Shown: one piece after another, positions 8,614 to 45,322 of the stretch | Layout: each line of letters begins with the position of its first letter | How positions within the stretch are numbered: the stretch's first letter is position 1 | From: Omnitrophica bacterium RIFCSPHIGHO2_02_FULL_46_20 | GTDB lineage: Bacteria; Omnitrophota; Gorgyraeia; 2-01-FULL-45-10 | Length of the DNA: 46,646 nt | Direction of reading: 5' to 3' | Assembly: GCA_001804065.1 (NCBI GenBank) | Contig: MHFG01000082.1 | Coordinates: forward strand, 1-46,646 | Program-made: the position numbers and the translations under genes | Notes under the pieces: model-generated | The model's database searches: none | Seen by the model: the letters and a program-made list of their open reading frames with translations, nothing else | Told to the model about the DNA's origin: nothing

Positions 8614-9410
8614 TGACAAGGCATAAAAAATTTAAAAAGATGCAGCTGCCGAAAGCGTTTACGGGCGCCAAAGAATTTATCCTGCAAAGGGTAGCCGGTA
8701 TGATAGTTTTGGTAGTATTCATAATCTTTTCATGGGTCCTTATAACGGCGTTCCTCGAGAGGTCCGATTATTTCATGTTAAGATCCGTGGAGGCAAGAGG
8801 CGCTCCCGAGATAAGCCTGATATCTATAAGAAGCGATCTCTTAAGGCATTATAAGGGTAATAATATATTTAAGATAAATCTTACGGCAATCGCTAAGTCC
8901 CTGGAACTGCGGCACCCGGATGCTAAGGATATTATCGTAAATAGAGCGCTTCCGGACAAACTATTAGTTGAATTAAATTTTCGCAGTCCTGTCGCAATTT
9001 TGAGTAATGGTCTTTCATTTCCGATAGATAGAGAAGGCGTCATACTTGTCAGCAGGGATCCTGCGCGGCTGGGCGGCCTTCCCGTAATAAAGGGAGTAAA
9101 CCCGAAATATGCGGGTAAATTACACAAGAAAAACGAATCAAAAAATTTAGAAGCGGCGTTGAAGCTTCTCGATGAAATTAAAAAGGCCAGATTTCTTGAT
9201 AAGTACGGCGTGCGCACACTTGACGCAAGCGACATTAAAAGCCTGTCATTCGATCTAGGCGAAGACGGGCCTATGATCATAATAGGTTACGAGAATCTAA
9301 AAGAGCGGCTCTCGGTTTTAAGAGACACGCTAAGGGATCCGCGCCTCGTTCTTGATAAAATAAACTATATTGATATAAGATTTAAAGACGCGGCTATAAG
9401 CCCAAAATGA
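8613..9410 (+). CDS. ftsQ: Cell division protein FtsQ (single N-terminal TM plus a POTRA-like periplasmic part)
   Basis: Hydrophobic segment VAGMIVLVVFIIFSWVLITAFL followed by a roughly 200-aa domain. Conserved position between ddl and ftsA. The sequence itself is weakly diagnostic. Confidence 0.7.
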   Translation: MTRHKKFKKMQLPKAFTGAKEFILQRVAGMIVLVVFIIFSWVLITAFLERSDYFMLRSVEARGAPEISLISIRSDLLRHYKGNNIFKINLTAIAKSLELRHPDAKDIIVNRALPDKLLVELNFRSPVAILSNGLSFPIDREGVILVSRDPARLGGLPVIKGVNPKYAGKLHKKNESKNLEAALKLLDEIKKARFLDKYGVRTLDASDIKSLSFDLGEDGPMIIIGYENLKERLSVLRDTLRDPRLVLDKINYIDIRFKDAAISPK

Positions 9411-9465
9411 AACCCCGTATTGTATTCGGGAGAGGTTCCATGTGCAATTGCATAAGGGTTGGCGC
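9407..9465 (+). repeat. 59-nt start-codon-abutting element, unit 1 of a tandem pair
   Basis: ATGAAACCCCGTATTGTATTCGGGAGAGGTTCCATGTGCAATTGCATAAGGGTTGGCGC. Its ATG overlaps the ftsQ TGA. The 20-codon ORF ends in a TGA that overlaps the next unit's ATG. Confidence 0.85.
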
Positions 9466-9524
9466 ATGAAACCCCGCATTGCATTCAGGAGAGGTTCCAT
9501 GTGCAATTGTATAAGTGTTGGCAC
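9466..9524 (+). repeat. 59-nt start-codon-abutting element, unit 2 of a tandem pair
   Basis: 53/59 positions identical to unit 1 (hand count). The 20-codon ORF ends in TGA 9526-9528, overlapping the ftsA ATG at 9525. Confidence 0.85.
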
Positions 9525-24547: not shown

Positions 24548-25666
24548 ATGAGAGTGCTCCATGTAAATACGCACATTAATGTCGGCGGCATCGGGCAATA
24601 CATATTATCACTGACAAGGGCTCTGAAATCAAGAGGCGTGGATTGTTTAGTTGCATCAAGCGGAGGCGATCTGGAGCCAGAACTTAATAGTCGCGGAATC
24701 AAGCATATATATTTAAATCTAAAGACAAAATCAGAATTAAGCCTTAAGGTATTAAAGTCTGCATTCTCGTTGACCGATATTGTAAAAGCCGAAGGCGTAG
24801 ACCTTATCCATGCTCATACCAGAGTTTCGCAAGTCGCTTCTTTTTTCGCGTCGCGCCGTACAGGGATTCCTTATGTTTCAACATGCCACGGCTATTTTAA
24901 GCCGCGGCTCTCAAGGCGATTATTCGATACGTGGGGCAGGAAAGTCATAGCCATAAGCGATGCCGTTAAAATCCATTTGGAAAAAGATTTTGGAGTCGAT
25001 AAAAAAAGAATCGAGCTTGTCTACAACGGTGTTGATACGTATAGATTCTCCGCGAGCTATTCAGGCGAAGAAATAGTAAAAGCAAAAAAAACTTTATTGT
25101 TAAAAGACGGAGCTATAATAGGGACGATGGGCAGGCTCTCTCCGGTTAAAGGTCAACGGTTTCTTATTGAAGCGATGAAGTATGTGATTTCAAAACAAAA
25201 AGACGCGCAATGCCTGATCATAGGCGGCGGCATGGAAGAGAAGGCGCTCAAAGATCTGGCAAAGGGGCTGGGTATAGAAGAGTCTATAAAATTTACGGGT
25301 TCTAACCATAGGGATACGCCTTTATACCTGGCATGCATGGATGTTTTTGTGCTGCCATCCATAGAAGAAGGATTGGGCATGGCGCTGCTCGAAGCAATGA
25401 GCGTCGGCAAACCATGCGTGGGTTCAAATATCGGCGGCATCAGTAATATTATAAAATATGGCGTAAACGGATTGCTCGTCCCTGTCCGAGATGCCGCAGC
25501 GATAGGAGACGCAGTCTTAAAGCTTTTGGATGATAAAGTTTTAAGTGAAAAGATGGGCCTTAAGGGAAGAGAACTTGTGGAAGAAAGATTCTCGTTAGAT
25601 TCAATGGCGGATAAAATTGCTTCATTATACAGAAAGATCGCATGCGGGTTGGCACATGAAAACTAA
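24548..25666 (+). CDS. GT4-family glycosyltransferase
   Basis: INVGGIGQY, EGLGMALLEAMSVGKPCVGSNIGG (EX7E-type motif). Confidence 0.8.
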   Translation: MRVLHVNTHINVGGIGQYILSLTRALKSRGVDCLVASSGGDLEPELNSRGIKHIYLNLKTKSELSLKVLKSAFSLTDIVKAEGVDLIHAHTRVSQVASFFASRRTGIPYVSTCHGYFKPRLSRRLFDTWGRKVIAISDAVKIHLEKDFGVDKKRIELVYNGVDTYRFSASYSGEEIVKAKKTLLLKDGAIIGTMGRLSPVKGQRFLIEAMKYVISKQKDAQCLIIGGGMEEKALKDLAKGLGIEESIKFTGSNHRDTPLYLACMDVFVLPSIEEGLGMALLEAMSVGKPCVGSNIGGISNIIKYGVNGLLVPVRDAAAIGDAVLKLLDDKVLSEKMGLKGRELVEERFSLDSMADKIASLYRKIACGLAHEN

Positions 25667-42104: not shown

Positions 42105-42120
42105 GAAAAAAAGGCAAGGT

Positions 42121-42179
42121 ATGAAACTTCGTATTGCACTTAAGGATAAGTTCCATGTGCAATCGTATGAGGTAGGCAC
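42121..42179 (+). repeat. 59-nt start-codon-abutting element, divergent copy
   Basis: ATGAAACTTCGTATTGCACTTAAGGATAAGTTCCATGTGCAATCGTATGAGGTAGGCAC. Roughly three-quarters identical to the other copies, with two compensating 1-nt indels. It ends exactly at the ATG at 42180. Confidence 0.75.
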
Positions 42180-43418
42180 ATGAAAAAACAAAATAAAATT
42201 TACATACTCGATGTAACAAATAGGGATGGCGTGCAGACATCTAGGCTTGGGCTGGCGAAACTGCAGAAGACGATGATAAATATTTACCTTAACGAGATGG
42301 GCGTTCACCAGTCCGAGTTCGGCTTCCCTGTTACGCATCATGAAACCAATTATCTGAATGCGAACTTAGAACTTGCAAAGATAGGCGTCTTAAAGCCCAT
42401 AGTATTGAGCGGCTGGATAAGAGCGATAAAAGATGATGTTGAGAAGGCGTGCAAGATGACAAAAGTAGAGAATCTCAACCTTTCGATATCTACATCCGAA
42501 CAGATGATAAGCGGCAAATTCCAAGGGAAATATACGAAAGAGGATGTCATAAGAGAGATGGCCGAGGCCGTGCATACAGCGCGTAAGCGCGGAATAAAAC
42601 TTGTCGGTGTCAACGCGGAAGACGCTTCAAGGACCCATCTAGACTATCTTATTAAGTTCGCAAGGGCCGCTAAAAAAGCAGGAGCGGACAGAATACGTTA
42701 TTGCGACACGCTTGGCTACGACGATCCTTTCACTATATATGAAAGAATAAAGATACTGGCAGAGGAAATCAAATTACCGATAGAGCTGCACTGTCACAAC
42801 GACCTCGGAATGGTCGTTGCTTGTTCTGTTGCCGGCGCTAAAGCGGCCATGGACGCGGGAGTTGACGCTTACATAAATACTACTGTGAACGGCATGGGCG
42901 AGCGAGCTGGCAATGCGGATCTTGTAAGCATTATACTGGCGATAAAATACGCCAGCGGTTTCCATGACAAATTAGCGCTGGATGAAAAGATCAAGCTTTC
43001 CTGCGCGTGGAAGATAGCGAAATACGCCTCGTACGCTTTTGGCGTGCCAATACCAATAAACCAGCCGGGTGTCGGCGCAAACGCGTTCGCGCATGAATCA
43101 GGGATACATGCCGACGGCGCATTAAAGGATAGGAGAAACTACGAGCTTTATGATTTTGAGGAGCTCGGCAGGGGCGAGCCCGAAATAGTAGAAACCGGAA
43201 GGCAGATTACCGCCGGAGAATATAGCGGTATAAGGGGCTTCAGAAACGTTTATGACAAGCTCGAGATAAAATTCGAGAACGAGAAGGATGCTACGAAGAT
43301 ATTAGAGCTTGTCCGCTACGCAAATGTCCATACTCACCAGCCGCTGACCGAGGATGAATTGAGATTCATCGCTAAATATCCGGAAATAGCGCGTAAAATA
43401 TTCACTATGACCGCATAA
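42180..43418 (+). CDS. HMGL-like (DRE-TIM) family enzyme: homocitrate/citramalate/2-isopropylmalate synthase-like, without a LeuA regulatory domain
   Basis: LDVTNRDGVQT (variant of the TLRDGEQ motif), HCHNDLGMVVA, NGMGERAGNADL, HESGIHADG. Confidence 0.6.
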   Translation: MKKQNKIYILDVTNRDGVQTSRLGLAKLQKTMINIYLNEMGVHQSEFGFPVTHHETNYLNANLELAKIGVLKPIVLSGWIRAIKDDVEKACKMTKVENLNLSISTSEQMISGKFQGKYTKEDVIREMAEAVHTARKRGIKLVGVNAEDASRTHLDYLIKFARAAKKAGADRIRYCDTLGYDDPFTIYERIKILAEEIKLPIELHCHNDLGMVVACSVAGAKAAMDAGVDAYINTTVNGMGERAGNADLVSIILAIKYASGFHDKLALDEKIKLSCAWKIAKYASYAFGVPIPINQPGVGANAFAHESGIHADGALKDRRNYELYDFEELGRGEPEIVETGRQITAGEYSGIRGFRNVYDKLEIKFENEKDATKILELVRYANVHTHQPLTEDELRFIAKYPEIARKIFTMTA

Positions 43419-43441
43419 ATACTATAAGGAGAGTGAGCAAT

Positions 43442-43500
43442 ATGAAACCTCGTATTGTATTTGGGAGAGGTTCCATGCGCAATTGTAGGAGGGTTGGCAC
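43442..43500 (+). repeat. 59-nt start-codon-abutting element, copy 4
   Basis: ATGAAACCTCGTATTGTATTTGGGAGAGGTTCCATGCGCAATTGTAGGAGGGTTGGCAC. 52/59 positions identical to unit 1 (hand count). It ends exactly at the ATG at 43501. Confidence 0.85.

Positions 43501-45322
<1,822 letters not shown>

Follow-up and report, generated by a model that had tools for sequence, protein, structure and literature searches.

The 59-nt unit at positions 43442-43500 is very probably a copy of a small non-autonomous mobile repeat of one Omnitrophota family, inserted at the start codon of a gene and displacing the native Shine-Dalgarno (SD) sequence of that gene. The window, i.e. the whole stretch of 46,646 nt that was analysed, belongs to a metagenome-assembled genome (MAG) of 1.31 Mb in 92 contigs with 44.9% GC (G000). 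All genomes compared are MAGs, and absence in relatives means that the element was not found in the genomes searched. An earlier sequence-only reading held that an element had inserted at the gene start, stranded the native SD and brought its own ribosome-binding site. Empty sites among strains, orthologues in other species and the statistics of SD sequences across copies agree with that claim. The features are collected in Table 1.

Table 1. Positions of the repeat copies, signals and genes discussed (window coordinates unless a contig of the genome is named).
Feature	Position	Strand	Remark
Displaced native Shine-Dalgarno AAGGAG	43426..43431	+	10 nt 5' of the element's first ATG
Native start ATGAAA (Met-Lys), now opening the element's 20-codon mini-ORF	43442..43447	+	
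59-nt repeat copy	43442..43500	+	nhmmer E = 4e-19; covariance model 86.3 bits
Hairpin 1	43446..43472	+	AACCTC (43446-43451) pairs with GAGGTT (43467-43472)
Hairpin 2	43474..43503	+	CATGCGC (43474-43480) pairs with GCACATG (43497-43503)
Element-borne Shine-Dalgarno AGGAGG	43487..43492	+	8 nt 5' of the gene's ATG at 43501
Gene for a 178-aa protein	43501..44037	+	signal-peptide-like N-terminus
Sister copy before HMGL-like (leuA/cimA-type) gene	42121..42179	+	present or absent among strains at least 99% identical
Two tandem copies between ftsQ and ftsA	9407..9524 (9407-9465, 9466-9524)	+	
5'-truncated element remnant (SD and ATGAAA only)	25637..25661	+	start region of the next gene
Y1 genes of the window's genome	C64:4901-5587 (L021 1465-2151), C3:22595-22927, C37:10-297		

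The positions that the sequence-only reading gave for the two SD sequences, one before the ATG at 43442 and one before the ATG at 43501, are exact to the base. The upstream AAGGAG is 69 nt from the working ATG of the 178-aa gene. The mini-ORF opened at 43442 has 20 codons and its stop codon, TGA at 43502-43504, overlaps the ATG at 43501. Deletion of 43442-43500 yields AAGGAGAGTGAGCAAT-ATGAAAAAC, a normal start region, as had been claimed; its layout is that of most syntenic orthologues. The 59 nt suffice for this, and not 59 nt plus one ATGAAA as first proposed, because the removed 59 nt already hold one copy of ATGAAA. Because ATGAAA is found on both sides, the inserted DNA is 43442-43500 or any stretch shifted by at most 6 nt, and the ATGAAA at 43501 was either supplied by the element or is common to element and gene. 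The 3' part of the same gene has two tandem 39-nt units (window 43945-44022, 82% identical), which encode a Pro/Ala-rich tail of the protein.

The repeat family is dispersed and oriented. The 16-mer ATGAAACYTCGTATTG occurs five times in the window where 0.88 occurrences are expected, and none of 100 shuffles reached five. With nhmmer, 32 full copies were found in the genome (E from 1e-8 to 1e-19), and a covariance model built from 31 copies gives 33-34; the copies are on 24 contigs and have unrelated flanks. The consensus reads ATGAAACCTCGCATTGCATTCGGGAGAGGTTCCATATGCAATTGTAAGGGGGTTGGCAT, and ATGAAA comes next in nearly all copies (AATGAA in one). About 20 copies in this genome lie directly 5' of ORFs of at least 100 aa, among them ftsA, rplR (L18), hom, an ilvD-like gene and genes for membrane proteins, and all gene-associated copies are in sense orientation. 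Of the 44 genomes of the order, 11 have the element by the covariance model; they belong without exception to the family of the window and contain 33, 19, 9, 5, 4 and fewer copies. The element was not found with this model in five genomes of two other families or in 12 genomes of the other orders of the class. Two subfamilies exist, of 59 and 68 nt; most relatives carry the 68-nt form, which has the same ends and a longer first hairpin. No part of the window matches Rfam at gathering thresholds.

Partial and nested copies are also found. The remnant in Table 1 reads ATCGCATGCGGGTTGGCAC plus ATGAAA and opens a membrane-protein gene, and the stop codon TGA of the upstream gene lies inside it. 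Solo 3' halves (SD and ATG) at gene starts number about 12 in the genome and solo 5' halves about one; this single 5' half (G000 C5:12979) sits in plain intergenic DNA. In the same genome a palindromic MITE, some 220 bp long and bounded by terminal inverted repeats (aacttgcggtgg...gcctgaagcgg / ccgctgagggcggccaccgcaa), carries the 59-nt element (5' CTGAAAC) exactly at its centre. The six copies of this pair, all outside the window, are at C5:12560-12790, C9:4908-4966, C16:143-201, C74:5358-5416, C74:6667-6725 and C92:2371-2429. Because there are six copies, the nested pair has spread together, and the element is able to land outside genes. The element itself is not a MITE because it has no terminal inverted repeats: a scan of 43420-43520 found none, only internal hairpins with unpaired termini.

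Direct evidence of mobility comes from the neighbouring copy at 42121. Strain contigs, i.e. contigs of other assemblies encoding proteins identical to those of the window, exist in both states, as the sequence-only reading anticipated for the gene at 42180. Eleven contigs are empty and read from the serA stop codon through GAAAAAA(A)GGCAAGGT to ATGAAAAAACAA, with a single ATGAAA, and six are filled, with the same flanks and the 59-nt unit between them. The filled and empty haplotypes differ by only 3-43 substitutions per 4.9 kb, and the presence or absence is of exactly 59 nt. No element (E ≤ 1) was detected at 80 loci orthologous to the 42121 region in other Omnitrophota species, and in most of the 30 of these loci with start regions read, an SD-like motif is directly before the start codon. 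The empty state is therefore ancestral, because 80 of 80 orthologous loci lack the element, and the polarity of the change is insertion.

Three public scaffolds (L030, L038 and L039; ANAN16-1) have runs of N exactly at the 42121 copy (matching window 42105-42179), and one ANAN16-1 scaffold has a duplicated gene start at this position. Mixed filled and empty populations appear to break assemblies here.

Tandem copy number also differs between strains, with one or two full copies before both rplR and hom. Genome G019 carries both subfamilies, one inserted at the terminal ATGAAA of the other. In its array at G019:C35:2429-2561 (L002/L011) a 68-nt copy is followed directly by a 59-nt copy, which points to re-insertion and not to slippage. 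Strain-level empty sites were not found for the ftsA array or for two GTG-flanked copies, and no record of the ilvD-like protein was found when such a site was sought.

For the copy at 43442 the evidence is found between species. The sequence 43401-43520 (120 nt) is identical in 20 independently assembled strain contigs, all with the element, and no empty allele was seen among these. A direct scan of genome contigs with the 178-aa protein gave no match. By synteny, orthologues were found downstream of the HMGL-like gene at 28 of 80 loci in other Omnitrophota species, and the element is absent from all 28. Start regions were read for the 20 best matches of the 28. In those with a placeable signal-peptide-like start, 6-25 nt separate the upstream stop codon from this start, and an SD-like motif 3-8 nt before the ATG is present in most (for example ...ccataaaaaaaaggagcgcaaATGAAAAAG). 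The reconstructed empty site at 43442, a 23-nt spacer with AAGGAG 10 nt before ATGAAA, matches this layout. An unrelated 59-nt spacer at the same place in relatives, which the sequence-only reading set against insertion, was not found in any syntenic orthologue with a placeable start. The empty sites expected for this gene are thus seen in other species and not in strains, and insertion at 43442, which is probable, rests on species-level orthologues and on analogy with the 42121 copy.

Other copies were also expected to sit behind a stranded SD, and this has proven to be the case. The comparison covers 54 leading copies (the first of each array) in six genomes, with tandem followers and MITE-nested copies excluded. 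An SD-like 4-6-mer lies 3-13 nt before the native start in 23 of the 54, with a match of at least 5 nt in 14 (26%). Among all 1,892 [AG]TGAAA sites in the genome, the corresponding values are 18% and 5.4% (binomial p = 2e-5 and 7e-7, respectively). Ordinary gene starts, taken as the first ATG of 704 long ORFs, give 44% and 19%. The rate for leading copies is that of ordinary gene starts, and the DNA just 5' of the element therefore resembles an ordinary gene-start region. The 57% of leading copies that have no recognisable upstream SD are in this respect like ordinary genes in the genome. The stranded SD sequences are outside the repeat, and neither their sequence nor their spacing is constant among copies. 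An upstream SD is not needed everywhere: ftsQ-ftsA is a coupled junction, where the ftsQ stop codon TGA overlaps the ATG of the first tandem copy, resulting in a chain of three ATGA stop/start overlaps.

The sequence-only reading took ATGAAA as a 6-bp target duplication and Met-Lys gene starts as the target. Comparison of junctions supports the location at gene starts but not the duplication or the exact motif. The 5' hexamer varies (ATGAAA, GTGAAA, GAGAAA, AAGAAA and ATAAAA), in contrast to the 3' hexamer, which at genes is ATGAAA with few exceptions. The varied 5' hexamers occur where the native start is GTG or lies one to three codons upstream; when the hexamer is not a start there is an in-frame ATG 3-9 nt upstream, in some cases with an SD-like motif before it.

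Two genes in genome G001 illustrate the junctions. Across the family, asd orthologues begin M-x-K-K-Y-N-V. In G001 the flank ATGAGCAAGAAA (...gagaatttATGAGCAAGAAA) is followed by the element, which ends in GGCAT and ATGAAA, and then by TATAAC (TATAACGTA), so that the native MSKK-YNV is now MK-YNV. A gene labelled transketolase-like from its N-terminal sequence only has the flank ATGGCTGAAGAGAAA, the element and then MKLKMIPTRDGF, and its orthologue without the element in G000 reads MAGEKLKMVPTRDGF. With a variable 5' hexamer and a 3' hexamer that remains ATGAAA, the two junctions have only GAAA in common, so that the downstream ATG is the element's own. The target is therefore NNGAAA within the first few codons, and not strictly Met-Lys. 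GAAA at both junctions may reflect either a 4-bp duplication, which is also reported for MIRUs, or an element with GAAA at its own end that inserts 3' of this motif.

The element has two hairpins whose pairing is conserved by compensatory changes. In hairpin 1, 89.8% of cells are paired; C-G to U-A double changes are found in seven G000 copies, and the same pair in 68-nt relatives is C-G in 12, T-A in 13 and mismatched in one. An inverted-repeat scan extends this hairpin to ATGAAACCTC / GAGGTTCCAT, taking in the 5' ATG. Hairpin 2 has the general form CATATGC/GCATATG, with one C-A mismatch in the 43442 copy; its loop encloses the element's SD and its stem pairs the ATG of the gene. In this hairpin 98.2% of cells are paired, with A-U changed to G-C in ten copies and G-C to A-U in two. 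The covariation shows that pairing matters, be it for DNA mobility or for mRNA translation.

In 30 of 31 local MFE folds (mean -8.8 kcal/mol) the ATG of the gene is fully paired. Of 31 copies, 21 have a strict SD-like motif 6-10 nt upstream of the 3' ATG and 30 have a purine-rich G run. Single-sequence folds of four window copies have z-scores of -2.8 to +0.4, and stability alone is thus unremarkable. An alternative long-range helix between columns 13-19 and 38-48, exclusive of hairpin 2, has 94.5% of cells paired; it was rejected as a conserved structure with covariation not above shuffles.

The mini-ORF is conserved in phase and not in sequence. In G000, 24 of 32 copies are 59 nt long with the mini-ORF stop overlapping the start codon (ATGA), and the phase is the same in the 68-nt subfamily, where most copies end in ATGA on the ATG of the gene. 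The two subfamilies do not share a conserved peptide, and their 3' halves use different frames. Copies of 58, 60, 61, 63 or 69 nt break the overlap yet precede intact genes, so coupling cannot be obligatory. When columns were shuffled to see whether in-frame stops are avoided, 0.15 copies were expected and none observed, an expectation too low for power.

The comparisons show that the element integrates next to (N)NGAAA, at or shortly after a start codon and in sense orientation; in the copies that persist this motif is the ATG-AAA of a gene or a Lys codon within its first few codons. At its 3' end the element brings a purine-rich SD and an ATGAAA, and the host protein thereby begins with Met-Lys and keeps its remainder unchanged. 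The native signals for initiation are left 59 nt upstream, where they head a 20-codon mini-ORF stopping on the new ATG. The chemistry of integration, the translational coupling and the unfolding are inferred. Ribosomes loaded at the native SD probably translate the mini-ORF and melt hairpin 2, and may then terminate on the AUG and re-initiate, whereby the insertion would be nearly neutral for expression. The unrelated genes, the polymorphic copies and the preferential loss of the 5' half are consistent with tolerance rather than function.

It is possible, though rather doubtful, that the element is a portable translation-initiation cassette with a structure that has evolved for expression neutrality, with 3' halves domesticated as the lasting ribosome-binding sites of further genes (the solo remnants, about 12) and with GAAA-directed integration of a kind not yet described. 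Hairpin 2 might then block independent initiation at the new AUG while the native SD keeps control through the mini-ORF, and integration might, for example, involve pairing of the target AA with TT at the foot of hairpin 1 and a host HUH or other enzyme acting in trans. If this were true, roughly 3-4% of the genes of a streamlined genome would owe their present start regions to a selfish repeat.

A mobile repeat inserted at start codons has to be weighed against the idea that the 59-nt unit is a conserved cis-regulatory leader, either a leader-peptide or attenuator uORF or an RNA switch, with AAGGAG as its own SD. The ATGA overlap in three quarters of the copies (24/32), the two mutually exclusive helices that can be drawn, the sequestered start codon and the 5' ATG or GTG kept in all gene-associated leading copies would all suit such a leader. 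It is nevertheless quite unlikely. The upstream SDs lie outside the unit and differ by copy as native gene SDs would; strains at least 99% identical carry or lack the unit and the 80 orthologous loci lack it. The downstream genes (ftsA, rplR, hom, HMGL-like, asd and genes for secreted proteins) are functionally unrelated, the peptide differs between subfamilies, copies are found in the MITE and at non-genic sites, and neither an Rfam match nor covariation of the alternative helix above shuffles points to a switch. An attenuator or riboswitch was rejected on the missing Rfam match, the unconserved peptide and the unrelated genes.

Spread only by slippage or template switching at ATGAAA microhomology, without dedicated transposition, would account for the tandem arrays with strain differences at rplR and hom, and the direct repeats of 4-6 nt that flank every unit would favour precise deletion. 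However, slippage cannot place units at more than 25 sites that are unlinked and have unrelated flanking DNA, the 59-nt unit in the G019 array is no duplicate of its 68-nt neighbour, and at 42121 a single copy has newly arrived where 80 loci of other species are empty. Template switching as the sole route, which the sequence-only reading had offered beside insertion, is thereby made very unlikely. A coincidental arrangement, with AAGGAG at 43426 as no more than a random run of purines, is very improbable. An SD-like 4-mer does precede 18% of all [AG]TGAAA sites in the genome at 3-13 nt, but matches of at least 5 nt are far rarer in that background than before leading copies (5.4% versus 26%, p = 7e-7), and most orthologous genes have an SD-like motif in the corresponding place.

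Candidates for the mobilising enzyme were sought in the genomes. G000 has three IS200-like Y1 (HUH) transposase genes, of which the intact one examined (on C64) encodes 228 aa; one Y1 gene adjoins a small antitoxin/PemK-like toxin pair. Y1 was rejected as mobiliser because no match to the element model (E ≤ 10) was found around eight Y1 genes, and because Y1 is found in 34 of 40 family genomes regardless of the element, which is in 11. This near-universal presence suggests a domesticated or RAYT-like role for this type of Y1. TnpB (found in 0 of 40 family genomes) and a reverse transcriptase (absent from the copy-rich genomes G000, G001 and G016) were also rejected. An autonomous parent, with 5' and 3' halves split by an ORF, was sought and only solo remnants were found. 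No larger element was found in a metagenome pattern scan, where the matches were mostly from the same groundwater populations.

Among known elements, REP/RAYT and IS200/IS605 mini-elements share with the Omnitrophota element the lack of terminal inverted repeats, the hairpins near both ends and a short fixed target. Insertion compatible with placement 3' of the target, without duplication, and the Y1 (HUH) genes in the genome are further likenesses. In contrast, the hairpins of the element were not found beside any Y1 gene, Y1 does not co-vary with the element, TnpB was not found in the family genomes, and no guide-sequence spacer lies between left junction and hairpin 1. Assignment to either group was rejected, with no hairpins at the flanks of Y1 genes and no co-occurrence of enzyme and element.

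The closest likeness in function is to the mycobacterial MIRUs. These are described as intergenic repeats of 40-100 bp in about 40-50 copies, in the orientation of the adjoining genes, often arrayed in tandem with a varying number of units, having filled and empty sites with tetranucleotide direct repeats, and with a small ORF that overlaps the neighbouring genes after insertion at a start codon with -4 nt coupling and minimal effect on expression (Supply et al. 1997, via PMC12548453 and PMC3184786). The review by Brown and Wade (PMC12548453) proposes this logic of translational coupling for MIRUs. The Omnitrophota element is likewise short (59/68 nt), co-oriented with genes, tandem and strain-variable in copy number, with filled and empty sites and GAAA at both junctions, and its predicted mini-ORF ends over the gene start at the same -4 spacing. 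It differs in its host, which is not of the Actinomycetota, and the likeness is one of features and not of sequence to the MIRU consensus. Other differences are its two covarying hairpins, with the new start codon paired in one of them, its target core GAAA, and its visible SD and ATG-AAA. Because it carries these, the element can replace the first codons of a gene (MSKK to MK in asd). It is filed here as a MIRU-like functional class in an unrelated phylum, and not as the mycobacterial sequence family.

Neisseria REP2, with the MIRUs the closest analogue, and Borrelia IR-A/IR-B are dispersed repeats described as lacking terminal inverted repeats (Parkhill 2000, Morelle 2003 and Dunn 1994, via PMC3184786), and REP2, at 120-150 bp, also carries a promoter (PMC3184786). 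A mini-ORF with stop/start coupling and a stranded native SD are not described for REP2 in that review (PMC3184786). The Omnitrophota element resembles these repeats in having a ribosome-binding site, an ATG and two internal stem-loops. It is shorter, and a simple consensus scan found no sigma-70-like promoter within 42121-42179 or 43442-43500, where Omnitrophota promoters may differ from the consensus.

Rickettsia palindromic elements (RPEs) are small mobile repeats that are tolerated in or at genes since the reading frame is kept; they lie inside ORFs, and their translation becomes part of the protein. Two 69-nt variants in G001 (C72:4490-4564 and C67:2653-2727; L020, L067) are in frame with the downstream gene and are in this respect like RPEs; the native ATG could read through them as a 23-residue N-terminal extension. 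Unlike RPEs, the Omnitrophota element normally ends the upstream frame and restarts translation.

The element has consequences for how these genomes are read. The real ribosome-binding sites of dozens of Omnitrophota genes are repeat-borne, stranded SD sequences and 20-codon ORFs should not be called genes or regulators, and scaffolds break at polymorphic copies. The arrangement is also a natural construct for separating termination-reinitiation from RNA unfolding in translational coupling, and the enzyme behind GAAA-directed integration, once found, could reveal a new small-target insertion mechanism. The states before and after insertion at a start codon are directly visible in natural populations. 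The element can precede more than 20 genes that are still intact, such as ftsA and the gene for L18, because a replacement ribosome-binding site and start codon are supplied. It would be a second, phylogenetically independent case of a selfish repeat that owes its survival to insertion at start codons, which it then rebuilds.
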